DNA from: Candidatus Latescibacterota bacterium
GTDB lineage: Bacteria; Latescibacterota; UBA2968; UBA8231
Length of the DNA stretch: 64,000 nucleotides
Direction of reading: 5' to 3'
Assembly: GCA_965203175.1 (NCBI GenBank)
Contig: OZ241867.1
Coordinates: forward strand, 6,112,001 to 6,176,000
Shown here: piece by piece, positions 39,872 through 61,839 of the stretch
Layout of the letters: every line of letters begins with the position of its first letter
Numbering within the stretch: position 1 is the first letter of the stretch
Translations under genes and position numbers: made by a program
The notes under the pieces: generated by a model
Told to the model about the DNA's origin: nothing
The model's input: only the letters and a program-made list of their open reading frames with translations
Databases searched by the model: none

Positions 39872-39892
39872 ACAAATAACCGCAAAAAATTA

Positions 39893-39921
39893 TTGATAAA
39901 TAAAAAAAATCAACTTATCAT
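39893..39921 (+). promoter_or_regulatory. sigma70-like promoter
   Basis: TTGATA (39893-98), 17 nt, TATCAT (39916-21), with an A-rich upstream tract. Confidence 0.7.
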
Positions 39922-40038
39922 AGGCAGCCCAACCGGAACCAATCCAGTTTTAGGAAAGGAGGCTTAAGGCATTGAATTTCGCTTTCTAACTATCTTTCTA
40001 ATGAACAATCGCGTTTTAAACTAAACGAAGGAGAAGCA

Positions 40039-41940
40039 ATGAGATTCTTGAAAAGTATTACTATCGGGGCTGCATCCCTGCTGCTTGCGGCAGGAACGGC
40101 CAGCGCCCAGTTCGTCCATGCTGGTAACCCCGATGTTACTAGCCTCGCCGATATGACCAGCGGCGGCAGTCCTACGGTCCTAGAGATTGAAGGCTTGGCG
40201 GATGTATCCAACTACGCGTTCGATGGTTCAGACCTAGAAATCCCTTTTACCCTTTCGGGTAGCGGCGCCACGGTCTGGCTGATCATCTATCATGCTGACG
40301 CGAGTCCTCCCTTGACCATTACCGGCGAAGGGCCAGCGCCCTATAACGATCCCGAACATCCCGATCCGGGCTGGCACGTGTACGAAGGGGTCAATCCCTT
40401 GGTGTTCAAGTCCAACGGCGAGCGCTTTGAAGAAGGCGACAACGCCATCGTTTGGAACGGCCACGACAACGACGGCAATGTGGTGCCCGCAGGAAGCTAC
40501 AAGCTGTTCCTAGCCGCCTTTGACGACGAAGCCGCACCCCATCTGGTGGCCGGTGCCGTCTTCCGCAAACTGGGGACTCCGGGTCGCTTCATCATCGACA
40601 CGGCCAACAACCGCGTCTTCGACCATACTCGCAACAACAATATGAACAACGACTGGATCGAGAACCTTGAGGGATTCGATCTGATTGACCACACTGCCAT
40701 CATTGATGCGGGCGGTGGCACGCCGCTATCCGGCGTGCCGCTCAACAGCGATATGACCGAGTTCATCGGTATCGGCCAGTCCAACCGCCTCATGCGCTGG
40801 ACCGTGGACTGGGATTCCAATCGCCTCGCTCCGGAGGAGGACTGGGGCATTGATAACGACGCCGAGAACGGCATTATCAACATTGAGGAACTGCCCGGCA
40901 GCCCAGGGCAGCGCACCCTCATCACCAATCCCGACAAGACCGTCGCCTATGTCACCGCCGGCGTGACCGGCACGGTGGCCCAAATCGTCTCCTACGACGT
41001 CGAGACCGGTGCCAAGCTAGACACTTGGGACGTGACCGACCTGTTTATCTACGATAATGCAGGCTCCGACCGCGTCGGTGGGCCGATGGAAACGGCCGCC
41101 TTTTACAATGGCGAGCCCCCTCCCGAAGGCATCACCACTACCTCCCACCACACTTCGTGCATCGTGCGCCACAGCTACAATGGCGATCTGATGTGGATGA
41201 ACCGCAACGGCGACGGCTTTGGCGATACCCGCGCCTTCAATTCGGATGACGGCACGTTTGGCGACCTGCTCTACGGCCATACCGAAGCGCCCAACTTCAA
41301 GTACTCGATTTTCGCCAACAAATGGGGCTGGGTCTCGGTCTGTGAAAACGGCTTGGATAACACCAGTTTCGGGGCCATGCTCGGTGAAGACGGCTCCGGC
41401 CTGTTCAAGTTTGAGCCCAAGGAGGCACCGCTGACTTGGTCGCAGCATGTGGCCGTGGTCGACGAGGGCGACGACTGGGACGGCGTGTACATGATTATCG
41501 GCGGTTTCGGCGATGCCTTGGCTTCCAACGAATGGGTGTCCGAGGATGTCGGCGTAGTGCCGCCCACCCATCCAGTGGCCCAGTTCCCTTATGATCAGAA
41601 GCAGGTGACTTTGGGCTCGGCTGGCACTGCGATTGCAGAGGTGGAAGGTGCTGCTACGCCCAACACTCCTGCTCTGGGTGATGCGTATCCCAATCCCTTC
41701 AACCCCGAAACCACGATTCGCTTCGACCTGCCCTGGCAAGCGCCGATCCAGATCAAGATTTACAACCAGACTGGCCAGTTGGTGCGCGTGTTGGCCAATC
41801 AGGTTATGGGTCCGGGCAAATTCACTGTCACGTGGGACGGCAGGGATGACAGCGGTGCAGAAGTATCCACTGGAGTGTACCTCTACCGGATTGAAGCACC
41901 CAATCTGCAGTTGAGTAAAAAGGTCACATTCCTCAAATAA
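40039..41940 (+). CDS. Secreted protein with N-terminal FlgD-like Ig module and C-terminal T9SS-type-A/FlgD-like domain
   Basis: RBS AAGGAG; signal peptide ASA|Q; WNGHDNDGNVVPAGSY; C-terminal YPNPFNPETTIRF...WDGRDDSG..VSTGVYLYRI...KKVTFLK. Confidence 0.85.
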   Translation: MRFLKSITIGAASLLLAAGTASAQFVHAGNPDVTSLADMTSGGSPTVLEIEGLADVSNYAFDGSDLEIPFTLSGSGATVWLIIYHADASPPLTITGEGPAPYNDPEHPDPGWHVYEGVNPLVFKSNGERFEEGDNAIVWNGHDNDGNVVPAGSYKLFLAAFDDEAAPHLVAGAVFRKLGTPGRFIIDTANNRVFDHTRNNNMNNDWIENLEGFDLIDHTAIIDAGGGTPLSGVPLNSDMTEFIGIGQSNRLMRWTVDWDSNRLAPEEDWGIDNDAENGIINIEELPGSPGQRTLITNPDKTVAYVTAGVTGTVAQIVSYDVETGAKLDTWDVTDLFIYDNAGSDRVGGPMETAAFYNGEPPPEGITTTSHHTSCIVRHSYNGDLMWMNRNGDGFGDTRAFNSDDGTFGDLLYGHTEAPNFKYSIFANKWGWVSVCENGLDNTSFGAMLGEDGSGLFKFEPKEAPLTWSQHVAVVDEGDDWDGVYMIIGGFGDALASNEWVSEDVGVVPPTHPVAQFPYDQKQVTLGSAGTAIAEVEGAATPNTPALGDAYPNPFNPETTIRFDLPWQAPIQIKIYNQTGQLVRVLANQVMGPGKFTVTWDGRDDSGAEVSTGVYLYRIEAPNLQLSKKVTFLK

Positions 41941-41954
41941 AGTGACTGACTTAG

Positions 41955-41993
41955 TAAGTGCTGCCGGCTGGTACGCCGGCAGCACTTATTTTA
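41955..41993 (+). terminator. Rho-independent terminator
   Basis: 14-bp stem TAAGTGCTGCCGGC/GCCGGCAGCACTTA, 6-nt loop, followed by TTTTAT. Confidence 0.8.
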
Positions 41994-42008
41994 TGCAGGT
42001 AAACAACG

Positions 42009-44147
42009 GTGCGAATCGATATATTCTTTCGCCTGCCAGCGATCCTAATGGCCTTGGCGCTGCTGTGCAGCAGTAGCCTTTCCGCCCAAGACCTCTCGCG
42101 TGCCACTATCTCTAGCTGGCCCACGACTACGTATTATCTCGGCTTTTTCGAATTTGCAAGCAAAACGGACGGTCAGATCCAGATTGTCGCTGGGGGCCAC
42201 TATACCCTCTATCTCAACGGCGATATAGTAGGTAGCGATCAGGGGCCTGACGCGGCACAATCCTACGAAGTTTCCTTTAAGCGCCGGGTAAATCACGTAG
42301 CCGTAACCGTCCAACACGATGGCCGGCAGAGTCCGTACGGACTGTTCTGCGTGCTGAATGGAGGAGAAGAGCATTTTGTCAGTTCGCCCACAGATCGGGT
42401 CAATCCCTGGTTCTGGACCGGCACCCCGCTTCCCAACGAGGAAGATGCGGATTGGATGACCATCCGCCAGAGGGATTTAGGGGATTACGAGGAAAACGGT
42501 GCAGCCGTGCGCTGGCAGCCCGTTCAAGCCGGCAGTCTCGATCCGGGTATCTATGCCGAGTTTGCGGACTTGGATCTGACCAGGAACTGGAGTATGGCAG
42601 GGTTCGCCGGTGGCCTAGCCGGCCATCAAGGCGGATTGCAACTGCGCGATTTGGCCGGCCAGAATATGGCCTTCAATACGCTGTCGACCGAGCCCAACAT
42701 GGTGGACGGCAACCTCAGCACTTCAGTGAATTTTCGCAAGGGAGCCGGTGCGCTTTTACAGAGTGTTGAAACTGATCTAGGCCGCCTTTTCTCCATTGAG
42801 CGGGTGCGGGTAATCACACAGCCCCCTTCGAGTAGAAACAGTTATGAAGATCTTTCGCTGCGCGGGTATAGCATTCTAGTGAGCAAGGACGGGGTCGGAT
42901 TCCTAGAAGTCGGATCGCAAAATCAGATTGCCACGTTTCAGGAGAGCGAAGTGGTCTTTCCACCCGTTCCCGCCCGCCACGTGCGCCTGACTATCACCGA
43001 GTTTTCCAATCGCAATGCTGCGCCGCGGGTGGGCGAGCTAGAAGTCTACGTTCAAGGGCTGGATCAGCAGGGCACATACCGGTCTCCCCCGCTGAATCTG
43101 GGCACCGATGATCTGAAGAATTTTGAACGAGTCCAATGGTTCGGCCAAGTGCCGTCCAACGCGGAAATGAGTCTGCGCTTTCGCAGCGGCGACGATGGCC
43201 AAGTCTGGAGCACCTGGTCGGACTGGTCGCCGGATCTCGACAGACCGCTGGACGTCCCCGAACCGCGCCGCTTCCTGCAATTCGAATCCCGCCTTGCGAC
43301 CCAAGCGTTGACGGAGGGGCCAGTGCTAGACAGCCTAGTTGTCTTCTACGACAGCGGGCCCATCCCGGCCACTCGGGCAGCGGCCTCAATTTTGCCGCTG
43401 CGCACTTCGATTGGCGTGGATACGCTTTTTACCTATACGCTTGAGTTAGACATCGGGGCCGATGATGCCGGGATTGGACGCTTGGCGATTATAACCCCGT
43501 GGCCGGCCAGTCTGGACAGGAACGATGTTCAAGGCCTAGGTGATGCTGGCATTGCCGATGTGGTGGCCAGTAATGACTCCCTAGTGTTGGTCTTCGACCC
43601 GCCTATCACCTCCGAAACCGGCACTACGGAACTGGTCATACCCTTCACTACCCGGCTGCTGGCGGCTAGCCACGCCTTCCAAGGATTGCTTTTTCCGCCA
43701 GATGCAGTTTCCTCGCTGCGGGTCCAAAAGCGCGAGGGCACCGATCCAAATACTGGATTGGCGTATTCCATTACCGCCTCGGCAACCGATTTCGCTATCG
43801 CTATCCTCGACGATGTGAAGGCCTATCCTGCAGCCTTCACGCCTAATGGCGACACCATCAACGACGAAGCCACTTTGGGCTTTGTTTTGGGGCGAGTGAA
43901 TGATGCCCAGGTCCACTTTGAAATCTACGATCTGGGCGGCCGCTTGGTCCGCACTCTCCCTGCACACAAACTCAATGCCGGGAACTATGCGCCTAGAGAT
44001 GGGCTCGACGCGAGTCTGCCTGGTCGCTGGGACGGACGCGGAGATGACGGCGCAGTACTGCCGCCCGGCTTGTACGTGTTTCGCGTTGTCGTAGATCTGA
44101 AACCCGACAAAAAAGTGGGAACGGGCGTTATAGGCCTAGCCTACTGA
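42009..44147 (+). CDS. Secreted protein with F5/8 type C (discoidin)-like domain and CHU_C/FlgD-type CTD
   Basis: Signal peptide LSA|Q; MVDGNLST...ETDLGRLFSIERVRV...ARHVRL...VGELEV; FTPNGDTIND...WDGRGDDG..LPPGLY...IGLAY. Confidence 0.82.
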   Translation: MRIDIFFRLPAILMALALLCSSSLSAQDLSRATISSWPTTTYYLGFFEFASKTDGQIQIVAGGHYTLYLNGDIVGSDQGPDAAQSYEVSFKRRVNHVAVTVQHDGRQSPYGLFCVLNGGEEHFVSSPTDRVNPWFWTGTPLPNEEDADWMTIRQRDLGDYEENGAAVRWQPVQAGSLDPGIYAEFADLDLTRNWSMAGFAGGLAGHQGGLQLRDLAGQNMAFNTLSTEPNMVDGNLSTSVNFRKGAGALLQSVETDLGRLFSIERVRVITQPPSSRNSYEDLSLRGYSILVSKDGVGFLEVGSQNQIATFQESEVVFPPVPARHVRLTITEFSNRNAAPRVGELEVYVQGLDQQGTYRSPPLNLGTDDLKNFERVQWFGQVPSNAEMSLRFRSGDDGQVWSTWSDWSPDLDRPLDVPEPRRFLQFESRLATQALTEGPVLDSLVVFYDSGPIPATRAAASILPLRTSIGVDTLFTYTLELDIGADDAGIGRLAIITPWPASLDRNDVQGLGDAGIADVVASNDSLVLVFDPPITSETGTTELVIPFTTRLLAASHAFQGLLFPPDAVSSLRVQKREGTDPNTGLAYSITASATDFAIAILDDVKAYPAAFTPNGDTINDEATLGFVLGRVNDAQVHFEIYDLGGRLVRTLPAHKLNAGNYAPRDGLDASLPGRWDGRGDDGAVLPPGLYVFRVVVDLKPDKKVGTGVIGLAY

Positions 44148-44283
44148 AGCGTGTAGGTCAATGCGTTTGCGGTCGTTTGCTGTTCACCCGAGATATCTCG
44201 GCGGGTAATTATTTTTTTGCCTCGTGTCCCGCACAAGACTCGAGCATTGGGCCACTGTAATTCACGTTATGAAACGTGCACCT

Positions 44284-46962
44284 ATGCACCATACTCTCAG
44301 CTATGCCCTTAGCGTTCTTTGCCTGCTGCTAGCGGTTGGCGCTGACCTAGTCGAGGCCCAATTTCTATCGCGGGACTATCGACGCTTGTGGGCCAATGAG
44401 CTGTTTGAAAACTACGGTGCATCGGGCTATCGCGACTATGACCTAGAAGATGAGAATCGCCGCTTCGACCTATTTGGCAACCTACTGATCGATGGCGTCG
44501 ACGTAGTTGAGTACAGCGAAATTCGCCGCGACGCGCCTGGGATTAGGGGCAGTTTTGAATCCCGCAATGCGCGCTACGATCGCTTCTTCCAGAAGCTGAT
44601 CATCGCCAACGAGGGCTTCGGTTCCTGGTCTACCCGCCTGATAATTGGAGACCACATCCGCACCTTTTTCACTCCGATGACCTTGAATCTGCCTAGCTAC
44701 AGCGGCATTCGCTGGGACGGCTCTTCTCGCAAAAGTCGTTTCAGCGTTATTGGCACGCATCTTACCGATCCGGTGCTCGCGTCGGGTTTAGGATCCCTCG
44801 AACAAAACGCAACCCAACGCCGGATCTTTGGTACGAGCCTGTTCGGCGGACACTGGGAGAGCCAGATCGGCGATATCCTTACGATAGGCTCCACCTATGT
44901 CAACGTGCACCGCTTTGACGCCGAAGCCAATGCCAAAACCAACAGCTTGCGAGGCACTGTGCCTCAGGTGATGCAGGACGGCTTGCGCAAGGTATTCGTT
45001 TTTATTAGCGACGATGCACCGTACAGAGGTTCTGGTGCCGAAGTACACCAATTGGACATGTTCGTAAACGACATCCCTGTACTGCCTGTGCGGGTGGGCC
45101 GGATCAACAACCTGCTCGAACACCTCCCAGTGACTACGGATTTGAGCAGCACGATTCTGTTGCAGCCACACGAAATCGGCTATTTACGCCGCAACCGCGA
45201 CTGGCTGCACGCAGTGGTCGATGCCAGCAATACGCCTTTTTTTCGTTCTCTACTGGCTGGTATTACCCAGGACGTAGCCCCCGCGACGCAAGCTGCTCCC
45301 CTTAGCGCCCACGACACGGACGTTATCTATTATGAATATGTCGTGCCTGATACGGTGAGCCGGATCGATTTCAGTGCCGTCGTGGCCAATGACTACAGCG
45401 TCGATGTGGTCGGAGCCGTACAGGTGCCGCTACTGGCACCGGGAGATGACGATTTTTACTACGATTGGCACAATGCGGCACGCGCCGCCGGCCAAGCCGG
45501 CCAGCGCAGCAATTTGCGCCAAATCCAATTCAACTACGGTTTTCCCACTGGCCTCTCGCTACTAGGTCTTAATTTTGCAGCCACCTTTATGGGCTTTCAA
45601 CTGCAGGGAGAACTCGCCCGCAGCACGACCTTTTTCAAGGTGCCCGAAGCCCAAGGCAAGCGCTACAAGCGCGAAAGTTCAATGTATTACGTCAACATGC
45701 TACGTCCTGTATACGACCGGGCAGAGGTGGGCTTCGAGTTGTTCGACGTGCCGCACGACTACACCACAGATTTCTCTTTGTTTTTTTCTTCAAAGGTAGG
45801 CCCCACTGTCGGCGGCCGACTCTACGATTCGTTCGCACTAGTCGAGGATAACGACGACCTAGACGACTGGCCCGACCGGGTAGAGCGCAACGATCCATTG
45901 GCACCGTATTTGAGCGCCAGCGGCCAAGGCCACGGCGTGTATCCCGGCTTCGATCCTGACGGTGACGGCGTCCTCGATTTTAATCTAGACCTGGATCGCG
46001 GCTCCGACGCTACACAGCCCTTTATAGGCTACTACGCTGAACTGCCTAGCTTGGTTTTCGGTGATGATTTCGACAACAACGGCATCGTCGATTTTCGCGA
46101 AAACGACAATCTACCCGATTACCTATATCCAGTGGACCATCGCGGCTTGCATGGTTTTGTCTCGCTGCAACCTACTGATCGCACCCAGTTGCGGCTGGGC
46201 CTATACCGGGTGCGTCAGCCGGCCCTAGGCACGCGCAACCACTCCCGTTATTTGGAAACTCAGTACCAGCGCGACTGGAAAGATTGGGGCTATGTGCGCC
46301 TTAGTTACCGCATTAAGCGGACGCGAGACAACATCCAGAATACGACCTTTTTCCCCACTTCCGATACCACCTTAAGCCCGGACCGACTAGAAAACAGGAA
46401 CAGCCTCAGCAATCAGATCTTTTTTGAGGGAGATCTGACAACTCTGCCGGCGTTGAACATACGCAATATCATCTCCTTTACCCACATCGACCTAAAGGGA
46501 CAAATCCTAGCCGATCCCGTGGCAGCCAAACCGGGCACGATGACCCGTTTTGCCATGGTGAACAAGATCGACTACACCATAAACCGGGGACGTTTCAGCA
46601 TTTTCCCCCAATTCAAGCATATCTACCAGCGGCACAAGTCGCCCGAACTCCAGATCCCGGATGCCCAGAGCCGCTGGCTCATGCCCATTCTGCGCGTGGA
46701 CTATCGGTTGACAGCCAAAACCATGCTCAAAACAGGCATCCAAGGCTTGCCCTTTTGGCACGAGCGTTTTCTCGATGCGGCCCGTCCAGAGAGCGAGTTT
46801 ACGCGGCTGACCTACACGGCATTTTTCCAAAACAAGAGCAATTACCGCGGCTACGACCTGACCATACTGTTGGGAACCTATCATACGACTAAGAAATTCA
46901 CCGGCTCGACCCGGCCCAAAGACGGTTTTCTGGAATATTTCTTTAGGGTCTATATTGGCTAA
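44284..46962 (+). CDS. Large exported hypothetical protein, putative outer-membrane beta-barrel, paralogue 1
   Basis: Signal peptide VEA|Q; alternating beta-strand pattern; Asp-rich insert; motifs shared with the next two ORFs. Confidence 0.75.
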   Translation: MHHTLSYALSVLCLLLAVGADLVEAQFLSRDYRRLWANELFENYGASGYRDYDLEDENRRFDLFGNLLIDGVDVVEYSEIRRDAPGIRGSFESRNARYDRFFQKLIIANEGFGSWSTRLIIGDHIRTFFTPMTLNLPSYSGIRWDGSSRKSRFSVIGTHLTDPVLASGLGSLEQNATQRRIFGTSLFGGHWESQIGDILTIGSTYVNVHRFDAEANAKTNSLRGTVPQVMQDGLRKVFVFISDDAPYRGSGAEVHQLDMFVNDIPVLPVRVGRINNLLEHLPVTTDLSSTILLQPHEIGYLRRNRDWLHAVVDASNTPFFRSLLAGITQDVAPATQAAPLSAHDTDVIYYEYVVPDTVSRIDFSAVVANDYSVDVVGAVQVPLLAPGDDDFYYDWHNAARAAGQAGQRSNLRQIQFNYGFPTGLSLLGLNFAATFMGFQLQGELARSTTFFKVPEAQGKRYKRESSMYYVNMLRPVYDRAEVGFELFDVPHDYTTDFSLFFSSKVGPTVGGRLYDSFALVEDNDDLDDWPDRVERNDPLAPYLSASGQGHGVYPGFDPDGDGVLDFNLDLDRGSDATQPFIGYYAELPSLVFGDDFDNNGIVDFRENDNLPDYLYPVDHRGLHGFVSLQPTDRTQLRLGLYRVRQPALGTRNHSRYLETQYQRDWKDWGYVRLSYRIKRTRDNIQNTTFFPTSDTTLSPDRLENRNSLSNQIFFEGDLTTLPALNIRNIISFTHIDLKGQILADPVAAKPGTMTRFAMVNKIDYTINRGRFSIFPQFKHIYQRHKSPELQIPDAQSRWLMPILRVDYRLTAKTMLKTGIQGLPFWHERFLDAARPESEFTRLTYTAFFQNKSNYRGYDLTILLGTYHTTKKFTGSTRPKDGFLEYFFRVYIG

Positions 46963-46977
46963 TATGGGCGGAATCAC

Positions 46978-49767: not shown

Positions 49768-49777
49768 GGTGCTCAAA

Positions 49778-52891: not shown

Positions 52892-52916
52892 TCGGCAGTT
52901 TGGGAGATAAAGCGCT

Positions 52917-56159: not shown

Positions 56160-56177
56160 GTGGAAGGTCGCATAACA

Positions 56178-56738
56178 ATGGAAATGCGTTTCAAACAACG
56201 CTGGCACTTCGTTATTCTGGGTAGTGCCTTGATACTGGCCTCTAGCCAGCTTCTCCATGCCCAAGCAGGGACGGATAACCAGCCCAAGGCGACCGCTATA
56301 TCTCATTCTCAGGCCATCGCCCTTTCGGTCGCCTTTCCGGGTTTGGGACAACTGGCTGCTGGGCATCGAATCAAGGGCACGGCACTAGTGGCAACCGGTA
56401 TCGCAACTATAGTGGGGTGGCTCACATCGCACGCTGATTACAATACGCAGACCAATCAGTTTGCCTTAGAAAAAGAACGCTATCTTTCGCTGCAAAACGG
56501 AGGCTCCTTTGACGCGGCGGAAAAAAGCTGGCGACGGCTCGGCAACTTAAAATCCGATCTGGACGGCTCCCATATCCGTCGCCGCTTATTCGGCGTCTTA
56601 GCCGTGGGTGTCTACGGCTACAATTTGCTCGATGTCCTGCTGTTAGATGGAGCGTCTCCCGCTGCGAAGCGGCGAATGCGCATCGCGCCATTGCCACAGA
56701 CCAGAACATCAGGCGTCTTACTGGTTGCCCAGTTTTAG
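56178..56738 (+). CDS. DUF5683-like membrane or exported protein
   Basis: Signal peptide; ALSVAFPGLGQL; VYGYNLLDV; C-terminal ...LLVAQF. Confidence 0.65.
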   Translation: MEMRFKQRWHFVILGSALILASSQLLHAQAGTDNQPKATAISHSQAIALSVAFPGLGQLAAGHRIKGTALVATGIATIVGWLTSHADYNTQTNQFALEKERYLSLQNGGSFDAAEKSWRRLGNLKSDLDGSHIRRRLFGVLAVGVYGYNLLDVLLLDGASPAAKRRMRIAPLPQTRTSGVLLVAQF

Positions 56739-56762
56739 CATCTGGTCTAGGAGAAACTGGAT

Positions 56763-57134
56763 ATGGAAACCCGAATTTATCTCTTACTCGGTCTGCTGAT
56801 CTGGGGGTGCAGCAACGACACGGAACTACCTATGCAATACCATCGGGGATATCTTGCGCAGCCTACCAATGTGGAAGCGGTAGCCGAAGAAGACAAGATT
56901 ATGGTTTCATGGCATCTGGATTCAGCAGCCAATGTGTCCGGTTTTGTCATTAGCTTCACCGATTCGATTGGAGTCGTGCAAACGCGCTCGTTGGAAGATA
57001 CAGAGGCGAGGTCCTATGAGGAGACAGACCTAGATCTGAGCCCAGGAGTCTGGTATCTGATCCAGGTGTGGGCGGTGGATGCCCGCCTATTTTTCGGACC
57101 GCGCTCGGCAGTAGATACGTTGGCGGTTTTTTAA
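56763..57134 (+). CDS. Small lipoprotein with fibronectin type III-like domain
   Basis: Lipobox LIWG|C; PTNVEAV...VSW...LSPGVWYLIQVWAVD. Confidence 0.78.
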   Translation: METRIYLLLGLLIWGCSNDTELPMQYHRGYLAQPTNVEAVAEEDKIMVSWHLDSAANVSGFVISFTDSIGVVQTRSLEDTEARSYEETDLDLSPGVWYLIQVWAVDARLFFGPRSAVDTLAVF

Positions 57135-57175
57135 ACTGCCTCTTCCGAGCATGAACTTAGCAGGAGTGGCGTAGT

Positions 57176-58411
57176 ATGGTCTCAGACCTAGGCCGTTTTC
57201 AAGCGCCAAGTGATCAGTTAAACTTTAACCGCCTCCTGCGGGAAACCCTCAAATACACCGTCTGGGGGTTACTCATCGGTGCGGGACTGATCGCCGGGGT
57301 CTTCGTCTATTGGCTATTGAGTGTCGAGGAGCGCGACGCGCCGGAACCGGCGTTGACCCGACTCATCATTCGCAAACCTAGGGCGACCAAGACTTTTGCG
57401 CTCAAGCGTCAACGGCTCCGGCCACGAGCCCTCACCAAACAGGTCACGGCACTCAAGCCGCGGCTGTCCACGCCGGCGGCTCCGCGCCTCAAAGGCTCCA
57501 GTGTTTTCGGCAATGTCCAGACGTTCGAATACGCCCTGCAAGCAGACGTGCCAATCAACCTGAAGACTAGCTCCATCGAATTGTCCGCTGCTAAGATCAC
57601 CGGCACCAAAGATCCGGAGAAGCGCATTGCCATGCGCGAGGAATTGATCGATCTGAACGCGCTGGATACGGGTAAATACAAGGGTCTCATCATCCAGGAC
57701 CCGACCGACCGCCGCAAAGTCAAGGGGTTCGTCTATCTGGGTACGGCTTGGGCCAACGACCTAAAGCCAACGTTTGACAGCGCTGCCAAGGCCATCCCCA
57801 ACCTAGTCGACGCCCTCAACGAACAGACGGGCATCTCGGCCAGAGTGGACGCGCATTTATTTATCGATTCTCAAGAACTGTTTCGCACGCCTTTTGTATA
57901 TATCACCGCTACTGAGGCCTTTGAACTGACGGAACGCGAACTAGAGAATCTAGGGAAATATTTGCGGCAGGGCGGGTTCATCTTCGTCGACAATGCCAAT
58001 CCCACCACAGAATTCAGTCAGGGGGAGGCGTCTCTGCGACGCATCTTCCGCGGTGCCTTAGGGGCGCAAGGCCAACTGCGGCCCATTTCCAACAACCATC
58101 CGATCTACCACACCTTTTACGATTTTGACGGCCCGCCAGTGGGTTCCGAACTGGAGATTCCCAGCTTCTCCGAACAGCGCAGCCTTGACCACTTAGTCAT
58201 CGCCGAGCAATCGTATTACCTAGAGGGTGTTTTCCTAGATGATCGCCTGGTAGCCATGTACTCCGACAAGGGATACGTCCATACTTGGGCACGCAATTAC
58301 GGCAATGAACCACAGTTGCGATTTGGCATCAATGCCGTCATTTTTGCCCTGACGCAGGAAGGATCTATCGCCCAGCAGCAGATTGATTTCTTCAGTCAAC
58401 GGGGCCAATAA
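57176..58411 (+). CDS. Membrane-anchored DUF4159 protein
   Basis: TM helix, K/R/P-rich linker, then PFVYIT, LGKYLRQGGFIFVDN, NHPIYHTFYDF, GINAVIFALT. Confidence 0.85.
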   Translation: MVSDLGRFQAPSDQLNFNRLLRETLKYTVWGLLIGAGLIAGVFVYWLLSVEERDAPEPALTRLIIRKPRATKTFALKRQRLRPRALTKQVTALKPRLSTPAAPRLKGSSVFGNVQTFEYALQADVPINLKTSSIELSAAKITGTKDPEKRIAMREELIDLNALDTGKYKGLIIQDPTDRRKVKGFVYLGTAWANDLKPTFDSAAKAIPNLVDALNEQTGISARVDAHLFIDSQELFRTPFVYITATEAFELTERELENLGKYLRQGGFIFVDNANPTTEFSQGEASLRRIFRGALGAQGQLRPISNNHPIYHTFYDFDGPPVGSELEIPSFSEQRSLDHLVIAEQSYYLEGVFLDDRLVAMYSDKGYVHTWARNYGNEPQLRFGINAVIFALTQEGSIAQQQIDFFSQRGQ

Positions 58412-58419
58412 GAGAGGTA

Positions 58420-59178
58420 ATGGCCATGCATTTGGGAATTATGCTAATGTTATTCGCGTCCGGCTGTAGCTTTTTTATTCCGCCGACCATTCTGTACAAA
58501 AACGAGCTGATACCCCGTTCTTCCCAAGGCGCTGAGGAACAGTATCTCGTGGGTGACGATGGGTCGGTCGCGTATGCTATAGAGGGCCTGCGCGTCAAGG
58601 TGGAACCGATGACGGATGATCAATTGAATGCACTGTTGCCCGAGGATTCGAGCAAAGGGAAGTTCTCGACGAATCCCTACACCTACGGCAATTGGATTGA
58701 TCCACTGTTGGGTTACCGGCCCAAGCGTTTTACGGTTTTTCGCGTTACGGTTATCAACGATATCTATGCCAAAGTCCTGCTCGATCCAATCAAAGCGCTG
58801 CTCTATACCGACCAGGGCGAGGCCCTGCATTCCTATGGTCTGCCATCTTTTTCGCCGCACAAAAGTTTTGAGCGCTACTACCGAGCCATTCGGGGTCAGA
58901 GCGGCAACGAATTTTATCGCTTTGACCTGCGCATGGGCAATGCGCGTAGCACGGCCTATATAGAAAACCAAAAGGTGTTCAAAGGAGAGAAATATTCAGG
59001 GCTCATCGCCTTCGATCCACTAAACGAGGAAGTCAGCCAAGTGCGCCTAGTGCTCAAAGATTTTGTCCTGAAATTCGACGCCTCCGGACAGCCGCTGGAA
59101 ACCGTGGATATCGCCCTCGAGTTCGATCAAAAGATCGCAACCGAGAAAGTGCGGCAAGCGGAGGCCACGAACAGGTAG
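58420..59178 (+). CDS. Hypothetical lipoprotein
   Basis: Lipobox FASG|C; NPYTYGNWIDP, FTVFRVTVIN, YSGLIAF (Ig-like). Confidence 0.75.
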   Translation: MAMHLGIMLMLFASGCSFFIPPTILYKNELIPRSSQGAEEQYLVGDDGSVAYAIEGLRVKVEPMTDDQLNALLPEDSSKGKFSTNPYTYGNWIDPLLGYRPKRFTVFRVTVINDIYAKVLLDPIKALLYTDQGEALHSYGLPSFSPHKSFERYYRAIRGQSGNEFYRFDLRMGNARSTAYIENQKVFKGEKYSGLIAFDPLNEEVSQVRLVLKDFVLKFDASGQPLETVDIALEFDQKIATEKVRQAEATNR

Positions 59179-59186
59179 CCAACCCA

Positions 59187-60122
59187 TTGCGTTTGCTAAC
59201 CATTTTATTCTTTTGCACTTGGGTAGGTCCCAACCTCCTGGTGCTCGACGTGGCAATCGCTGCCGAGGGGCCGCTGCCGACCTTGCGCCTTGCCCTGCTC
59301 GATTTTGAAGACCGGGCCGGCTTTCAGGCGGAATGGCATTTGTCTAGGGATGTACCCGATTTGCTGGGTCGATATCTGGATGCAGACGATGCGGTCTCTG
59401 TCATTCTGCCAAAAGAAGTAGAGGCCGTTCAACTAAACAAACAGTTCGAAAAATACCAGGGCATTGACCGGGCTGTGCGGTTAGGGCAATTCTTGGATGC
59501 CGACGTGGTCATTACCGGTGTCGTGGAGAAGATGGGCATGCGCCGAGTGACAGTGGGGAATCCCAATCTGGCTGGCTATAAATCCTACAATTCAGTGATC
59601 CACCTCAGCCAAGTACAGCTAATCAGAGTGGCGACCGGAAAAATAGTCGAGACCTTTGAAACGCGCAGAGACTCCACGGAAAAGTCGTACGGCCTAGATC
59701 TGTTCGGCCGGCCGCGCCAACAGGATCGGATATTCCGCGAACTCTTCAAGGTTGACTTCGGTTCCGAGCGTTTTTTTGATTTGACCTTTGGCAAACTCGT
59801 CGATGTCGCTTTCAGAGACCTCAGCAGCCAAATGATTACGAGTCTGACGGAGCGCCCCCCCATCGACCTTTCCGGCGAGCAGGCCCAGGTCCTAGCGGTC
59901 GAAGCCGACGAGGTGTATCTAGGCATCGGCATTTTGGATCGCGTCGAGTACGGCGATGTCCTGCCGCTGTATGATAAAGAGGTCCGAATTGCTCTAGTCA
60001 GAGTGCATCAGCTCATCGGGCCGCACTTATGCAAGGCCGAGGTTGTTGAGAAATTCGGTGTCATTGACACTGGTTTGCGCATAGGACAGCGCTTATCTAG
60101 AAACGCCAAAGAAGACGATTAA
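59187..60122 (+). CDS. CsgG/HfaB-like domain plus FlgT_C-like domain, exported
   Basis: LALLDFEDRAG, AVRLGQFLDADVVITG (CsgG/TolB_N-like); QVLAVEADEVYLGIG...VEYGDVL...IALVRV (FlgT C-terminal-like). Confidence 0.65.
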   Translation: MRLLTILFFCTWVGPNLLVLDVAIAAEGPLPTLRLALLDFEDRAGFQAEWHLSRDVPDLLGRYLDADDAVSVILPKEVEAVQLNKQFEKYQGIDRAVRLGQFLDADVVITGVVEKMGMRRVTVGNPNLAGYKSYNSVIHLSQVQLIRVATGKIVETFETRRDSTEKSYGLDLFGRPRQQDRIFRELFKVDFGSERFFDLTFGKLVDVAFRDLSSQMITSLTERPPIDLSGEQAQVLAVEADEVYLGIGILDRVEYGDVLPLYDKEVRIALVRVHQLIGPHLCKAEVVEKFGVIDTGLRIGQRLSRNAKEDD

Positions 60123-60154
60123 AACTTTTCTCTTGCCAACAAGGAGCGATAGCC

Positions 60155-60901
60155 ATGTGGGAAATAATTCAAAGTGGCGGACCGATGATGGTGCCCCTCA
60201 TCGCCTGTGCGATTCTAGCCCTTGCCTATTCGATTGAACGCCTGTGGATCTTCAGTCAATTGCCCACCTCGGAAGAAGCCCAAACTGAGCTCGATCGGCT
60301 CGAAACCGCGCTGCGCAACCGCGGCGAACAAGCCGTCGTCGAAGAGTGCAACCAAGGCAAGGGGCTGCTCAATTACGTCTTTGCTTCGCTGTTGAAACGA
60401 TACGATACGCTGATGATCGAACAGCGGGAATTCAAAGACACCAACGAGGAGATCATCCGGCTAGCCGACGCCGGCGGCGGCGGGCAGGTCAGCCGGTTTA
60501 TGGTCATGCAGCGGGAACTGGCCGATCTCAAAGACGAACTGGTCATTCAGACCGAGGCTGCCGCCCGAACCTATTTGGGCAAGAATCTGGCGATCCTGAA
60601 TACCATCGGCAACATAAGCCCCTTGCTGGGCTTGCTCGGCACCATTATGGGGATGATCATCGCCTTTGAGTCCATCGCCACCGCCGGGGCCGGCGACCCC
60701 AAAGTCGTCGCGGGCGGTATTTCCCAAGCTTTGGTCACCACCGCATCGGGGCTGATCGTGGCCATCCCAACGATTGTCTTGTATCGCTATCTAGCGCGCA
60801 AAGCAGACAATCTACTCGAAGACGCTGAGATGTACGGCCATGCCTTTGCCAATGCGCTGATCACGACCGGACAGCGCCAACAATACGAAACGACCGAGTA
60901 G
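60155..60901 (+). CDS. exbB: MotA/TolQ/ExbB proton-channel protein
   Basis: GGPMMVPL..., ISPLLGLLGTIMGMI, GISQALVTTASGLIVAIP. Confidence 0.93.
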   Translation: MWEIIQSGGPMMVPLIACAILALAYSIERLWIFSQLPTSEEAQTELDRLETALRNRGEQAVVEECNQGKGLLNYVFASLLKRYDTLMIEQREFKDTNEEIIRLADAGGGGQVSRFMVMQRELADLKDELVIQTEAAARTYLGKNLAILNTIGNISPLLGLLGTIMGMIIAFESIATAGAGDPKVVAGGISQALVTTASGLIVAIPTIVLYRYLARKADNLLEDAEMYGHAFANALITTGQRQQYETTE

Positions 60902-60925
60902 CTCCCGCCGGGAGGAGTCAACCTG

Positions 60926-61342
60926 ATGGCTAGACATCGCAAAGATCGTCCCGAGAGCTTTCTGGCCGAAGGCGGTCCGGATATGACGCCTTTGATCGAC
61001 TGCGTGTTTTTGCTGCTGATTTTTTTCATGGTCACCACGGTGTTTCTCCACACCAAAGGGCTAGAAGTGGACATGCCAGCCCAAAGCGAGGCTACGGAAG
61101 AAAAAAAGAAAGATATCAACGTCTTGGTCGATCGCGACGGCCAGATTCAGATCAAGGGCGAGGCCGTGCAGCCGACGGCCTTGGCGGCACGGCTGGTCAC
61201 GGCCATGGACGAGGCCAATAACGACAATATCATCATTCAGGCCGACGGCGAGTGCGCTCAGAAACACGTCGTGTTTGTGGTGGATAGAGCCAAGGAGGTT
61301 GGGGTTGAGGGCATCGCTTTTGTGCGGGAACGGGAGGAGTGA
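60926..61342 (+). CDS. exbD: ExbD/TolR protein 1
   Basis: DMTPLIDCVFLLLIFFMV (essential Asp), IIIQADG, VVDRAKEVG. Confidence 0.93.
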   Translation: MARHRKDRPESFLAEGGPDMTPLIDCVFLLLIFFMVTTVFLHTKGLEVDMPAQSEATEEKKKDINVLVDRDGQIQIKGEAVQPTALAARLVTAMDEANNDNIIIQADGECAQKHVVFVVDRAKEVGVEGIAFVREREE

Positions 61343-61755
61343 GTCGGATGCCTAGGCGCAAATCCCTATACGAAGAGCAAGAATTGAACATGACGCCTTT
61401 GATCGACTGCGTGTTTTTGCTGCTGATCTTCTTCATGGTAACCACGGTATTCAAGCAGCCCTACAGTCTGCAGGTCGTATTGCCCGAAGCGCAACAGGGC
61501 GTGATCGTCGAAGAGAAGAAACTAGTCGCCTCGATCACCCAGGACGGCCGCATGGAAATCAACCGCCATCTGGTGACCTTGGACAATTTGGAGCAGGTTC
61601 TGTTGCGGGAAAAAGAAGGCACCCGAAGTCTGACGCTGGTGGTGCGAACCGATCAGGAGACCCCGCATAAGTACCTACTGGATCTCTTCGAGGTGGCTAA
61701 GCGCGTGGGAATTGAAAAAATACCCCTGGCTACGGAAGACCTGCGAGAAAAATAG
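61339..61755 (+). CDS. exbD: ExbD/TolR protein 2
   Basis: NMTPLIDCVFLLLIFFMV, VVRTDQETP, VAKRVGIEKI; start 61339 (GTG) or 61348 (ATG). Confidence 0.93.
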   Translation: MSRMPRRKSLYEEQELNMTPLIDCVFLLLIFFMVTTVFKQPYSLQVVLPEAQQGVIVEEKKLVASITQDGRMEINRHLVTLDNLEQVLLREKEGTRSLTLVVRTDQETPHKYLLDLFEVAKRVGIEKIPLATEDLREK

Positions 61756-61839
61756 TTTGGAATTGGACCGCCACGGCGAACAACTCCTCTGCAGACGCCC
61801 ACAGAAATCCACCCCATCTGAATAAATGTAGCCTTCGCC

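Follow-up and report, generated by a model that had tools for sequence, protein, structure and literature searches.

The window analysed here, 64,000 nucleotides of a Candidatus Latescibacterota bacterium contig, contains a 14-gene operon belonging to what is apparently a so far undescribed, proton-powered envelope gene system common to several Bacteroidota-related phyla. Judged from sequence, it represents a three-barrel form, particular to its lineage, of an envelope system conserved in the FCB group, which ranges over Latescibacterota, Ignavibacteria, some Bacteroidia, Zixibacteria, Kryptoniota and Zhuqueibacterota. Its conserved parts are a discoidin-bearing protein with a type IX secretion system (T9SS)-type C-terminal domain (CTD), a giant plug-less barrel, a TPR protein of ~1050-1090 aa, an ExbB-ExbD(-ExbD) motor, a membrane-anchored DUF4159 protein, a lipoprotein of the g10 type and a DUF5683 membrane protein. 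Ancestrally there is also a PorV/PorQ-like small barrel, its gene placed after that for the CTD protein and ahead of that for the giant barrel. In this sponge-associated bacterium the giant-barrel system is hugely multiplied. A literature search found no description of a giant-barrel/ExbBD envelope system. The first-pass annotation had proposed a new trans-envelope complex, and the conserved unit, the motor and barrels other than TonB receptors all stand; its picture of a self-contained machine does not, and the family is not confined to Latescibacterota.

Gene products of the operon

The run consists of 14 tightly packed, co-directional + strand ORFs (g1 to g14, 40039-61755), with successive intergenic gaps of 68, 76, 15, -26, 25, 0, 24, 41, 8, 8, 32, 24 and -4 nt; 11 of the 13 are under 45 nt, as first noted. 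It ends, also as described, in exbB-exbD-exbD and meets a convergent gene (61840, - strand). The signal peptides, lipoboxes and transmembrane (TM) anchors attributed to the products are apparent on reading the sequences, which is how they were assigned rather than by predictor output. Pfam and NCBIfam matches in g1, g2, g6, g9 and g12-g14 bear out the CTD, TPR, DUF4159 and ExbB/ExbD assignments, while a domain search across all 14 products gave zero matches to TonB_C, Plug, SusD, OmpA and PD40.

The first two genes encode CTD proteins. g1 (40039-41940, + strand, 633 aa) is a secreted protein that ends in a T9SS sorting domain of type A, matching FlgD_ig (64.5 bits), CHU_C and Por_Secre_tail (TIGR04183 at 34.6 bits, cut-off 23). 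g2 (42009-44147, + strand, 712 aa) combines a discoidin (F5/8 type C) domain with a FlgD_ig/CHU_C C-terminal domain; it belongs to a family with 84 copies in the genome (fam0), and many of its homologues have PF13585 CHU_C on record.

Three giant outer-membrane barrel paralogues follow on the + strand: g3 (44224-46962, 912 aa), g4 (46978-49767, 929 aa) and g5 (49742-52891, 1049 aa), the true start of g5 probably lying later than 49742, near 49778. That they are paralogous is upheld by pairwise BLASTP (E 2e-76, 6e-54 and 6e-80); no Pfam or NCBIfam family matched any of them. In the AF2 model of g4 (pLDDT 69.8, pTM 0.72) the barrel is all beta, a further beta domain is inserted at ~225-385, and residues 486-627 form an Asp-rich loop of low confidence. 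The folds nearest to this model, SlpA, AlgE, FimD, MtrB and LptD, are all weak matches; SlpA ranks first, with 395 residues aligned at Z 14.0 and rmsd 8.6. The large proteins model as plug-less giant beta-barrels, in which neither a plug domain nor a TonB box was recognised. Classical TonB receptors with a plug and 22 strands were ruled out for g3-g5 by the absence of a Plug domain match and by the plug-less g4 model, nor are these proteins known T9SS or Glt components.

g6 (52917-56159, + strand, 1080 aa) is a TPR giant whose N-terminus holds a signal sequence or anchor. It is matched by Pfam TPR families and, at the level of repeats, by the NCBIfam models for YbgF/CpoB (eight stretches, 220.7 bits in all), for BamD and for PorW/SprE, the last at 107.9 bits where the cut-off is 250. 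Next come g7 (56160-56738, + strand, 192 aa), a DUF5683-like small membrane protein (PF18935 at 25.9 bits, cut-off 26.7; its counterpart in the Ignavibacteria cassette scores 28.6 bits), and g8 (56763-57134, + strand, 123 aa), a small, weakly fn3-like lipoprotein with a lipobox read as ..WGC, which weakly matches (E 3e-5) a 143-aa lipoprotein that comes after DUF5683 in locus L146. The DUF4159 protein g9 (57176-58411, + strand, 411 aa; 106.3 bits) reads as an N-terminal TM helix, a basic, Pro-rich linker and the DUF4159 domain, and is a candidate force transducer; no His/SHLS-type motor-binding motif was read in its TM helix.

g10 (58420-59178, + strand, 252 aa; lipobox read as ..SGC) is a lipoprotein of a family that has no Pfam model and 18 copies in the genome. 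Long paralogues bear either a DUF4159 domain or a GltG-type AgmX/PglI domain; the only three of these TonB_C-like AgmX/PglI domains in the genome (NF033768, 48.6-61.8 bits, cut-off 40) lie on g10 paralogues of two sister modules, C and D, and the window's own operon has none. g11 (59187-60122, + strand, 311 aa) is a periplasmic, FlgT-like protein with an N-domain of the TolB-N/CsgG/PelC type and a beta C-domain. Its AF2 model (pLDDT 83.7) matches FlgT (Foldseek E 1.8e-13, VIA Z 15.9), PelC (Z 13.2) and the TolB N-domain (Z 12.5), so the predicted fold agrees with the earlier CsgG/FlgT-like label. FlgT itself assembles into a ring next to a stator of the MotA family. The motor genes are g12 (60155-60901, + strand; PF01618, 100 bits), an ExbB/TolQ-family proton channel subunit under the equivalog cut-offs for TolQ, ExbB and MotA, and two ExbD/TolR-family genes, g13 (60926-61342, + strand; PF02472, 101 bits) and the divergent g14 (61339-61755, + strand; PF02472, 101.7 bits), similar to each other only at E 3e-20.

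Conservation and multiplication

Among regions from 10 relatives within the phylum, gene order is kept in seven. The set of 14 genes is complete in one (G156, 42-73% identity) and nearly so in three (G102, G113, G148); of the other regions, two (G107, G099) have a g11 paralogue only. Orthologues of g3 in other genera are 50-63% identical. G005, from another Latescibacterota family, retains g1, g3, g4 and g5 at 46-61% identity, and G008 has a CTD protein, a 351-aa protein, a barrel, a TPR giant, ExbB and ExbD. Whole Latescibacterota families are without giant barrels.

The family extends beyond the phylum. The same cassette (CTD protein, PorV-like barrel, giant barrel, TPR giant, ExbBD, DUF4159, g10-like and DUF5683 proteins) is a single-copy operon in MAGs of Ignavibacteria, Chitinophagaceae, Cytophagia, Zixibacteria, Kryptoniota and Zhuqueibacterota, and in Bacteroidota the system occurs in 10 of 401 sampled genomes. 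Of 14 loci from other phyla, 12 have, in this order, genes for a CTD protein and a protein of ~310 aa ahead of the barrel, and a TPR giant (9) or g10-like gene (3) after it; the other two (L131, L133) have barrel and TPR giant with neither a CTD protein nor a ~310-aa gene ahead. This count leaves out L083, which has no matching order, and L090 (labelled Handelsmanbacteria), where a CTD protein precedes two barrels. In the five loci that were extended, ExbB comes directly after the TPR giant or one gene on in four, DUF4159 lying between the two in L148; DUF4159 is present in four, g10-like genes in four and DUF5683-like genes in three. The g9-type gene adjoins the TPR giant or ExbBD in four of the five (L149 ends at the contig end). 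Order is thus kept across genera, families and phyla, and the genes are conserved as a unit.

Within its own genome, the operon's barrels are three of about 60 paralogues, spread over 41 loci, and the module of TPR giant, DUF4159, lipoprotein and ExbBD occurs five times, with five g6 copies, at odds with the single self-contained machine first envisaged. ExbBD lies directly beside the TPR giant in three of these five modules, and the g9-type gene adjoins the TPR giant or ExbBD in four. Sister modules bear either a TonB-like domain of the GltG type or a small barrel resembling PorV/PorQ. The gene preceding the giant barrel matches the PorV/PorQ family in all seven proteins tested, two of them from Latescibacterota (locus A of this genome and G008), with E 5e-12 to 7e-24 and 46-85 bits, all below the curated cut-off of 90; the window's operon lacks a PorV-like gene. 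The earlier statement that the components match neither Agl-Glt nor T9SS by recognisable motifs was therefore too strong, since sister or ancestral copies have the AgmX/PglI domain and the PorV/PorQ-family barrel. In membership tests, the operon itself could be assigned to none of Ton, Tol-Pal, Agl-Glt and T9SS.

Proposed function and its rivals

The best reading, which we hold tentatively and at a little short of an even chance, is an outer-membrane machine, energised by proton-motive force (PMF), that handles T9SS-type surface proteins. Genes for g2-like CTD proteins are present in 34 of the 41 barrel runs. A canonical T9SS (SprA and PorU) is located elsewhere in the genome; SprA was found in 163 of 168 Latescibacterota genomes, including every barrel-less family, so the operon is unnecessary for CTD-protein export as such. 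All 61 genomes of families f2, f3, f4 and f14 have T9SS without giant barrels, and any role of the operon in T9SS cargo handling is hence accessory. g1 and g2 would cross the outer membrane via the ordinary T9SS, and g3-g5 would receive, hold or release them, a step that a PorV-like carrier may mediate in the ancestral form. By analogy with SprE/PorW beneath SprA, g6 could be a periplasmic scaffold beneath the barrels. ExbB-ExbD-ExbD would turn proton flow into force. g9, laid out like TolA or TonB with a TM helix, an extended linker and a globular domain, might pass that force over the periplasm to g8 and g10, lipoproteins of the outer membrane, and to the FlgT-like g11. Surface proteins would in this way be displayed, moved or released with an input of energy. 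If true, this would be T9SS-like logic made from non-T9SS parts. The SprA Extended Translocon includes a PPI and SprE (PMC10994853) and may be compared with the 19 SurA-like PPIase genes within the barrel runs here.

Import is the best-known role of ExbBD motors, and the main rival, which we consider unlikely yet a serious contender, makes the giant barrels gated uptake channels for large substrates (glycans, peptides), which ExbBD opens by way of DUF4159, the TonB_C-like g10 paralogues (modules C and D) or both. The surface-anchored discoidin/CTD proteins would be substrate-binding lids, Sus-like except that the binders are T9SS-anchored rather than lipid-anchored. The 60 barrel paralogues with 84 partner proteins do resemble nutrient-receptor expansions. 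The discoidin/CBM-type domain of g2 would also fit, and so would the CTD protein of the Ignavibacteria cassette, which is GHL10 glycosidase-like, the PstS-like binding protein at L148, ABC sugar or peptide uptake genes at some barrel loci, and runs that contain an SBP and two permeases, a sugar-acid dehydratase and DUF3604. Against this, ABC permease loci are not enriched by barrels (6/26 within 10 kb, 14.8% expected, p 0.18); the families listed for 60 other barrel-run proteins include TPR (6), BPD_transp_1 (4), MR_MLE (3) and SBP families (2 each), with no carbohydrate-active enzyme family among the 25 of 68 listed. The barrels' lack of a recognisable plug or TonB box also argues against import, and the genome already holds 31 classical plug-bearing receptors and two canonical TonB proteins. 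To our knowledge, T9SS cargo handling is the sole context otherwise known for PorV/PorQ-family proteins.

An Agl-Glt-like adhesion or gliding machine, in which the motor moves complexes of outer-membrane barrels and adhesins relative to the cell, the CTD/discoidin proteins being the adhesins, seems improbable. One TolQ-like and two TolR-like genes, large TPR proteins and outer-membrane barrels recall that layout, as do the GltG/GltJ-type AgmX/PglI domains of sister modules, with weak GltG matches (E 5e-8), and Luciano et al. 2011 (PMC3169522) report that bacteria which do not glide, one Fibrobacteres member among them, have a glt/agl 'core complex' whose function is unknown. But g6 has no equivalog match to GltD, GltE or GltC, small barrels of the GltA/B/H type are absent, AgmX/PglI sits on lipoproteins rather than on a TM-anchored GltG-like protein, and 60 barrels per genome are unlike any Glt system. 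Tol-Pal-like tethering is very improbable: g6 would stand for CpoB/YbgF (its best NCBIfam match), g9 for TolA, g10 for a Pal-like protein, g11 for the TolB N-domain on which it superposes, g12-g14 for TolQRR and the barrels for structural anchors like SlpA, the top fold match of g4. g12 and g13 do score highest against TolQ and TolR, and TolB_N is unmatched anywhere in the genome; every Tol match, however, is far under its equivalog cut-off, the operon has neither an OmpA-type peptidoglycan-binding domain nor a beta-propeller, and five copies in this genome, rarity in Bacteroidota and absence from whole Latescibacterota families do not fit a housekeeping role. Least probable of all is polymer export through a TPR scaffold, a barrel and a PelC-like ring, as in exopolysaccharide secretion by PelBC, AlgKE and BcsC. 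The layout of TPR protein plus barrel is shared with those systems, g11 resembles PelC and g4 AlgE (Z 13.5), and the barrel loci repeatedly include glycosyltransferase-TPR proteins of the PMT_2 type (fam7); yet the operon has no synthase, polymerase or Wza-like gene, and we know of no such system that uses ExbBD. Both of these last readings leave the CTD proteins and PorV-like partners unexplained.

Promoter, expression and flanking genes

The sigma70 promoter described as clear in the first-pass annotation is a match to consensus (TTGATA-17-TATCAT, 39893-39921, + strand, 10/12 positions). A 7-kb scan found five such sites, against 3.2 ± 1.7 in shuffles, so the site gives no evidence of function. 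RNA-library contigs cover 30/30 bins in two of four runs and bridge nine gene junctions, weak evidence of expression because DNA carry-over is possible. Upstream, g0 (37769-39871, + strand, 700 aa; weak transglutaminase-core and BNR matches in Pfam) is co-directional and ends 167 nt before g1; in the remaining relative's region (G142), it adjoins g11-exbBDD (95% identity) and g1-g10 are absent. The divergent flanking gene (35690-37675, - strand) codes for a membrane protein, 661 aa long, from the DUF6785/DUF6784 family (fam6). Four fam6 members from barrel loci elsewhere share 43-46% identity with it over ~650 aa; a fam6 representative matches DUF6785 at 413 bits, plus DUF6784. The convergent gene (61840-64000, running on to ~64875 past the window, - strand) encodes a 1011-aa protein with a Pfam FG-GAP/ASPIC propeller and TPR, 44-50% identical to fam5 members at other barrel loci. 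Since both flankers belong to families that recur at barrel loci, the unit is larger than the 14-gene run.

The operon and its giant barrels

The first-pass annotation described a co-directional run of 14 genes, and this stands: the plus-strand ORFs, numbered g1 to g14, span 40039-61755, and the next gene, at 61840, is convergent. Intergenic distances are 68, 76, 15, -26, 25, 0, 24, 41, 8, 8, 32, 24 and -4 nt. The run opens with two proteins bearing C-terminal domains (CTDs) of T9SS type: g1 (633 aa) has a type-A sorting domain (34.6 bits for TIGR04183, whose cut-off is 23, and 27.1 for Por_Secre_tail, cut-off 27), and g2 (712 aa) joins an F5/8 type C (discoidin) domain to a FlgD_ig/CHU_C C-terminal domain (FlgD_ig 27.2, cut-off 27; CHU_C below cut-off). 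The giant barrels g3, g4 and g5 (912, 929 and 1049 aa) belong to no Pfam or NCBIfam family, nothing relevant being found even at E<=10. They are followed by the TPR giant g6 (1080 aa), with TPRs over its whole length and repeat-level matches to YbgF/CpoB, BamD and PorW/SprE; a borderline DUF5683 protein (g7, 192 aa); a small lipoprotein (g8, 123 aa); g9 (411 aa), whose topology, read from sequence, is a TM helix, a basic/Pro-rich linker and then DUF4159; a lipoprotein without family (g10, 252 aa); g11 (311 aa), likewise without Pfam or NCBIfam family; and ExbB, ExbD and ExbD (g12-g14; 248, 138 and 138 aa; PF01618 100 bits, PF02472 101 bits, twice). Neither Pfam nor NCBIfam has a model for the barrel family or for those of g10 and g11. 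In the protein atlas g10 falls in unnamed clusters only, and sequence search of solved structures gave no match for g10, g11 or g2 and only weak FlgD Ig matches for g1.

The three barrels are paralogous (BLASTP E 2e-76, 6e-54 and 6e-80). An AlphaFold2 model of g4 (pLDDT 69.8, pTM 0.72, 29-row alignment) is an all-beta barrel of ~26-28 long strands, as counted from the DSSP list rather than from coordinates, with an inserted beta domain at residues ~225-385 and an Asp-rich, low-confidence stretch at 486-627 that contains invariant DNDD..D and D.D.DG-type motifs. Residues 1-95 form a conserved, low-confidence coil, with no globular N-domain and no plug. Fold matches are to SlpA (E 3e-9, TM 0.2, Z 14.0, rmsd 8.6, 395 of 929 residues; Foldseek/VIA-align), AlgE (Z 13.5), FimD (Z 13.3), MtrB (Z 11.2), SprA (Foldseek E 3e-4, Z 11.0) and LptD (Foldseek E 1e-6); all of these, SlpA and SprA included, indicate only a generic large-barrel likeness. 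The possibility raised earlier, that the large proteins are classical plug-bearing 22-strand receptors or known T9SS or Glt components, is not borne out by the g4 model, which is plug-less and has only generic barrel matches by Foldseek and VIA-align. SlpA of Deinococcus, a 30-strand S-layer barrel, is the best structural match, and weak SlpA_C Pfam matches occur in two homologues (20.1 and 26.6 bits; cut-off 35), but the barrels here have no SLH or coiled-coil part.

Among 1.84 billion representative proteins, 838 belong to the barrel family at a threshold of E<=1e-3, and 589 at the stricter E<=1e-10. All 57 g4 homologues retrieved are unnamed or 'hypothetical', and the atlas clusters of g4 are mainly from Latescibacterota and otherwise unnamed; the one name offered there, DUF6029 (0.90, rank 26), was rejected as being without HMM support. 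A complex prediction for g3 (46-912) with the C-terminal domain of g2 (600-712), with alignments for both, scored 0.00 (mark 0.32) and, run without controls, has no bearing either way.

The label 'CsgG/FlgT-like' given to g11 in the first-pass annotation is correct at fold level. Its model (pLDDT 83.7) matches FlgT best (E 1.8e-13; Z 15.9, rmsd 3.2, 163 residues), then the Vibrio LPHT ring (Z 15.8), CT253 (Z 13.7), PelC (Z 13.2), the TolB N-domain (Z 12.5) and CsgG (Z about 10.9). One of its homologues is recorded with a CsgG Pfam match, and the source of another calls it 'TolB-like'.

Conservation, sister modules and expansion

At >=40% identity, g11 occurs in 29 other genomes among 168 of the phylum searched, including 10 of the 30 others of the same genus. 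The regions of 10 genomes were compared. One (G156) has all 14 genes in the same order; three (G102, G113, G148) are nearly complete and three (G103, G164, G167) partial, with gaps that do not equal absence since the gene calling was crude (greedy longest-ORF) and left small genes uncalled in relatives (g7, g8 and g13 in G113, g13/g14 in G102). Two others (G107, G099) have only a g11 paralogue in a different context. In a further congener (G142:C1:4923360-4949360, loci L009/L010), a 95% identical homologue of g0, the upstream neighbour of the operon (37769-39871), is followed by g11-exbB-exbD-exbD with no g1-g10 block between, and g10-like and g1-like genes lie convergent just downstream. This suggests that g11 and the motor form a sub-unit which can be separated from the rest, the barrel block being gained, lost or rearranged within the genus.

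Among families of the phylum, barrels are found with a profile of the barrel family in 75/75 genomes of f1, 30/32 of f5-f13 and 0/61 of f2, f3, f4 and f14, and SprA in 163/168 genomes, every barrel-less family included. Other families of the phylum offer G005, with orthologues of g1, g3, g4 and g5 (46-61% identity), and G008, with a g11-like gene and then, further on, genes for a CTD protein, a 351-aa protein, barrel, TPR giant, ExbB and ExbD.

The gene set had been put forward as a unit to be sought in other genomes, and it is conserved as one far outside the lineage of the window. A scan of one genome per species gave 560 stretches encoding relatives, of which 79 were kept, among them some from MAGs labelled Ignavibacteria, Bacteroidota (Chitinophagaceae, Cytophagia), Kryptoniota, Zixibacteria, Zhuqueibacterota and Handelsmanbacteria (26-33% identity, full length). 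The cassette order CTD protein, ~310-aa protein, barrel, then TPR giant (9 loci) or g10-like gene (3 loci) is kept in 12 of 14 other-phylum loci, counted without L083 and L090; in L131 and L133, the other two, the order is reduced to the barrel followed by the TPR giant. Five of these loci were extended: (i) L146 (Ignavibacteriaceae) encodes CTD, 302 aa, barrel, TPR giant, ExbB, ExbD, DUF4159, g10::DUF4159, GHL10-CTD, DUF5683 and a 143-aa lipoprotein; (ii) L148 encodes CTD, 307 aa, barrel, TPR giant, DUF4159, ExbB, ExbD, ExbD, PstS-like, g10-like and DUF5683-like proteins; (iii) L147 (Zhuqueibacterota) has barrel, TPR giant, ExbB, ExbD and two DUF4159 genes, and further on g10 and a g11-like gene (CsgG 23.6 bits); (iv) L149 has barrel, TPR giant, ExbB and ExbD; and (v) L150 (Chitinophagaceae) has CTD, 309 aa, barrel, g10-like, DUF5683-like, 145 aa, CTD, TPR giant and DUF4159. 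Of the seven ~310-aa proteins compared (from module A described below, G008 and five other-phylum cassettes), every one matches the PorV/PorQ family NF033709, but with 46-85 bits none reaches the cut-off of 90; PorQ, PorV and PorP come up as secondary matches. In an even sample of the Bacteroidota phylum, 10 of 401 genomes have the barrel, with one match each, and it is also present in a MAG of Ignavibacterium album (L112). In Latescibacterota the outer-membrane half of the cassette is massively expanded.

The window's own genome (a single contig of 6.58 Mb, with the window at 6.11-6.18 Mb) encodes TPR giants of 1080-1090 aa at five places: module W in the window, A (2.79-2.81 Mb), B (3.05-3.06 Mb), C (5.63-5.65 Mb) and D (6.50-6.52 Mb). 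Adjoining genes are g10-like in 5/5, DUF4159 in 4/5 and ExbB-ExbD(-ExbD) in 3/5; the motor genes are ExbB-ExbD-ExbD next to A and ExbB-ExbD next to B, and both these modules have a PorV/PorQ-like small barrel beside them. The g10 paralogues of C and D (375-413 aa) have a C-terminal extension that is an AgmX/PglI domain (GltG/GltJ-type, TonB_C-like; 61.8, 57.2 and 48.6 bits, cut-off 40), the genome's only three such domains. Module W has neither an AgmX/PglI domain nor a PorV-like barrel. Longer g10-like lipoproteins (485-496 aa) occur in Ignavibacteria and Chitinophagaceae MAGs (L146:5799-7259, minus strand; L148:15041-16498 and L150:9674-11164, plus strand), and that of L146 has DUF4159 at its C-terminal end (27.4 bits). 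Taken with the AgmX/PglI fusion of modules C and D, one lipoprotein domain is joined to two 'transducer-type' domains.

A second copy of exbB-exbD-exbD (60138-61749, 1612 bp) lies ~630 kb away at G000:C1:5537807-5539418, with 99.6% identity. Its neighbours there are GHL10-like, BNR/sortilin-like and FG-GAP/RGL11-like genes. The likely cause is a recent duplication or gene conversion that involved only the motor cassette.

BLASTP of g3-g5 against all ORFs of the same genome found 62 ORFs, which gene calling resolved into 60 genes in 41 co-directional runs. Family fam0 comprises 84 g2-like CTD proteins (552-1111 aa), g2 among them; at least one member is found in 34 of the 41 runs, usually directly upstream of a barrel, and barrel and fam0 genes together occupy 356 kb, 5.4% of the genome. 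Other families recurring in the runs are fam2 (23 copies, ~300 aa, weak CBM9 likeness), fam3 (19 SurA/PpiD-like PPIases of ~560 aa), fam4 (g10-like lipoproteins, 12 in runs and 18 in the genome), fam5 (8 FG-GAP/ASPIC proteins), fam6 (8 DUF6785/DUF6784 membrane proteins), fam7 (7 proteins with PMT_2 glycosyltransferase and TPR) and fam8 (5 TPR proteins). Since the genes flanking our operon belong to fam6 (35690-37675, minus strand) or are fam5-like (61840-64875, minus strand), the locus is wider than the interval first given. The canonical T9SS sortase PorU (632 bits), followed by a 349-aa PorV-like gene, is at G000:C1:2958744-2963109. A PorU-tail-like CTD occurs on at least 50 further ORFs, and g1 and g2 match 104 and 168 ORFs of the genome by BLASTP; on these counts the T9SS-type cargo proteins of the genome number well over a hundred. 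An expansion of this kind, ~60-fold in a 6.6-Mb genome, would be a major, little-studied trait of sponge-associated Latescibacterota.

Relation to known machines and possible function

Few known kinds of machine deliver proton energy from the inner to the outer membrane, namely Ton, Tol-Pal, flagellar stators, T9SS GldLM and Agl-Glt, and a further conserved system of 10-12 genes would lengthen this short list. The ExbB-ExbD proton motor is present (PF01618, PF02472), all matches being below the ExbB/ExbD equivalog cut-offs, and each of Ton, Tol-Pal, Agl-Glt, T9SS and the synthase-dependent exporters lacks at least one defining feature here. None of g1-g14 has TonB_C, Plug, SusD, OmpA or PD40 by Pfam and NCBIfam.

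One of the closest known systems is the T9SS Extended Translocon (SprA-PorV-PPI-SprE-SkpA with the GldLM motor, and PorP-like carriers for type-B cargo). Both have cargo genes with T9SS C-terminal domains (here g1, g2) and, encoded beside the cargo, a small barrel of the PorV/PorQ/PorP family, which here is seen in modules A and B and in the ancestral cassette. Both also have an outer-membrane barrel of very large size, a large TPR protein (the one here being partly similar to PorW/SprE), peptidyl-prolyl isomerases (here at many barrel loci) and a motor of the MotA/ExbB superfamily that is driven by protons, and both range over the FCB group. In contrast to T9SS, the barrels here are of ~900-1050 aa and are not SprA (TIGR04189 is found only on the SprA elsewhere, at G000:2482242-2487677), the motor is ExbB-ExbD rather than GldL-GldM (GldK/L/M/N match none of g1-g14 by NCBIfam), nothing in T9SS corresponds to DUF4159, DUF5683, g10 or the FlgT-like protein, and most genomes have T9SS without this system.

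As described in PMC10994853, the Extended Translocon consists of the giant barrel SprA, the carrier PorV that binds the cargo CTD, a PPIase and the TPR lipoprotein SprE; motor energy is required for extraction of carrier-cargo complexes, and PorP-like carriers serve type-B cargo and also anchor adhesins. By analogy, the architecture here appears to parallel it: CTD cargo would correspond to T9SS cargo, the PorV-like barrel to the PorV carrier, the giant barrel to SprA, the TPR giant to SprE, the PPIases to the PPI, and ExbBD to the GldLM motor, with DUF4159 as a TolA/TonB-like shaft. Contacts between barrel, carrier, cargo, scaffold and motor proteins are putative. A second parallel is to the TPR-tolQ-tolR-tolR operons with a membrane-tethered vWA protein, proposed in section 8 of PMC12204202 (Mol Biol Evol 2025) as a new class of force transducer and described there as of unknown function. 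Those operons share a TPR gene, one TolQ-like and two differing TolR-like genes and a protein made of TM helix, disordered linker and non-TonB globular domain; they differ in that the globular domain is vWA there and DUF4159 here, that the g9 TM helix has no SHLS/His motif, and that the same section describes no barrels, CTD proteins or PorV-like genes. Because of these two parallels we favour, with somewhat less than even confidence, a role of the giant barrels in the energy-dependent handling of surface proteins of T9SS type. Points against it are the missing His/SHLS motif, the sub-threshold scores of the PorV-family matches, and the window copy itself, where no gene for a PorV/PorQ/PorP-type carrier barrel was found (g3 comes directly after g2, and six PorV-like BLASTP queries match no window gene).

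Import through the barrels, which we think unlikely, would draw on the Ton/Sus-like side of the system. On that side are exbB with its two exbD genes, the many outer-membrane barrel paralogues, each of which has a surface protein of binding type as its partner, and the TonB_C-like domain found in modules C and D; discoidin and GHL10 domains also speak for import, as do ABC uptake and sugar-acid genes at a few loci. The clearest case, L034 (G000:C1:4107649-4117550), resembles a small uptake/catabolic operon, with barrel, fam2, SBP_bac_1, two ABC permeases, DUF3604 and an enolase-superfamily dehydratase, but is not typical of the 41 loci. ABC permease loci lie within 10 kb of barrels in 6/26 cases against 14.8% expected (p 0.18) and are not enriched, and no CAZyme family stood out among 60 miscellaneous barrel-run proteins (best 25 of 68 families, so that rarer enzyme families may be missed). 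Moreover, the operon has no plug, PF00593 barrel or TonB (neither Plug, PF07715, nor TonB_dep_Rec, PF00593, is found on g3-g5 even at E<=10; g9 has TonB-like topology but a DUF4159 domain), the barrel partner is a T9SS CTD protein rather than a SusD lipoprotein, and classical receptors and TonB are encoded separately, all 31 plug matches over cut-off in the genome lying outside the operon.

Motility of the Agl-Glt kind explains fewer parts and seems quite improbable. Like the Myxococcus machinery, the system combines one TolQ-like gene and two TolR-like genes with large TPR proteins and barrels in the outer membrane, and proteins of modules C and D end in an AgmX/PglI domain of the GltG/GltJ type; and a 'core complex' of unknown function, a conserved operon in non-gliders, is described by Luciano et al. 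2011 (PMC3169522). Against this, no Glt protein is matched at equivalog level by NCBIfam, the TonB-like domain sits on a lipoprotein and is absent from the window operon (no GltG/GltJ-type TM protein with AgmX/PglI among g1-g14), the barrels are far larger, and Glt is without CTD cargo and PorV-like parts. In the comparison with GltD/GltE/GltC and GltA/B/H, the 18 NCBIfam matches of g6 include no Glt model, and weak repeat-level GltE matches fall in two other TPR proteins. Tethering as by Tol-Pal, still less probable, also leaves more parts unexplained: PD40, TolB_N and OmpA are absent from the operon and TolB_N from the whole genome (93% complete), g11 shares only the fold of the TolB N-domain and is closer to FlgT, and matches to TolQ (81 bits against 221) and TolR (67 and 58 against 127) are below equivalog level, with none to TolA. 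Least probable is polymer export, again explaining fewer parts; the likeness to PelBC, AlgKE and BcsC is of fold only (PelC for g11, AlgE for g4), and no synthase-type family is found in g0-g14 by Pfam or NCBIfam.

Returning to the handling of surface proteins, we rate the system as one of its own kind, partly assembled from known modules, whose function we infer. A bolder version, tentative and on balance doubtful, is that the cassette would be an unrecognised, self-standing FCB-group protein secretion and sorting system parallel to T9SS, with the giant barrel as its own translocon, the PorV-like barrel as carrier, the TPR giant as periplasmic scaffold, the FlgT-like protein as ring, and ExbBD as motor, its force passed on by a transducer of a new kind, DUF4159. 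The outer-membrane half would then have grown, in the Latescibacterota that live with sponges, to ~60 barrel/cargo pairs, a large, variable discoidin-bearing surface repertoire for host-matrix contact. As a further proton-powered machine, the system described here would have as distinctive parts the new giant-barrel family, DUF4159 as a new candidate force transducer and T9SS-type cargo, and would for the first time place DUF4159, DUF5683 and three families that lack a database model in a functional context. Full-text literature search found no description of the barrel family or cassette, though supplements or other papers may contain one. The Pfam database paper is the only one found to mention 'DUF4159', and 'TonB', 'secretion system', 'outer membrane', 'ExbB' and 'gliding' are all absent from the genome paper on sponge Latescibacterota (PMC12993501). 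'PorV2' stems from a citation superscript and is an artefact. Since Ignavibacteria and Chitinophagaceae-type genomes have the system in single copy, the question is open to genetics.

Promoter, transcription and base composition

The first-pass annotation also placed a clear sigma70 promoter before the run. A 10/12 consensus match is indeed present at 39893-39921, but such matches are no more frequent in the region than in shuffles, and promoter and terminator scans of the region gave background level. RNA libraries labelled sponge metagenome contained 27-29% of sampled words. RNA contigs of >=90% likeness span 30/30 bins of 41801-61800 in two of the four runs compared (from three studies; the small-share runs X5-X15 were left out) and bridge the junctions g1-g2, g2-g3, g3-g4, g4-g5, g5-g6, g6-g7, g8-g9, g9-g10 and g12-g13. 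These contigs are 90-99% identical, hence from relatives; strand, transcript ends and level are not readable from them, and DNA carry-over is possible, so that they are a weak sign that the operon is transcribed.

The contigs of these related strains lack 15 nt near the start of g5 (49837) and 18 nt at the g6/g7 boundary (56159); both differences are in-frame and are strain variants at gene starts or ends. Elsewhere in the window, G+C drops to 0.46 at 10001-12000 and to 0.51-0.54 at 20001-26000, against 0.59-0.64 in the surroundings, and these two stretches may be acquired segments.
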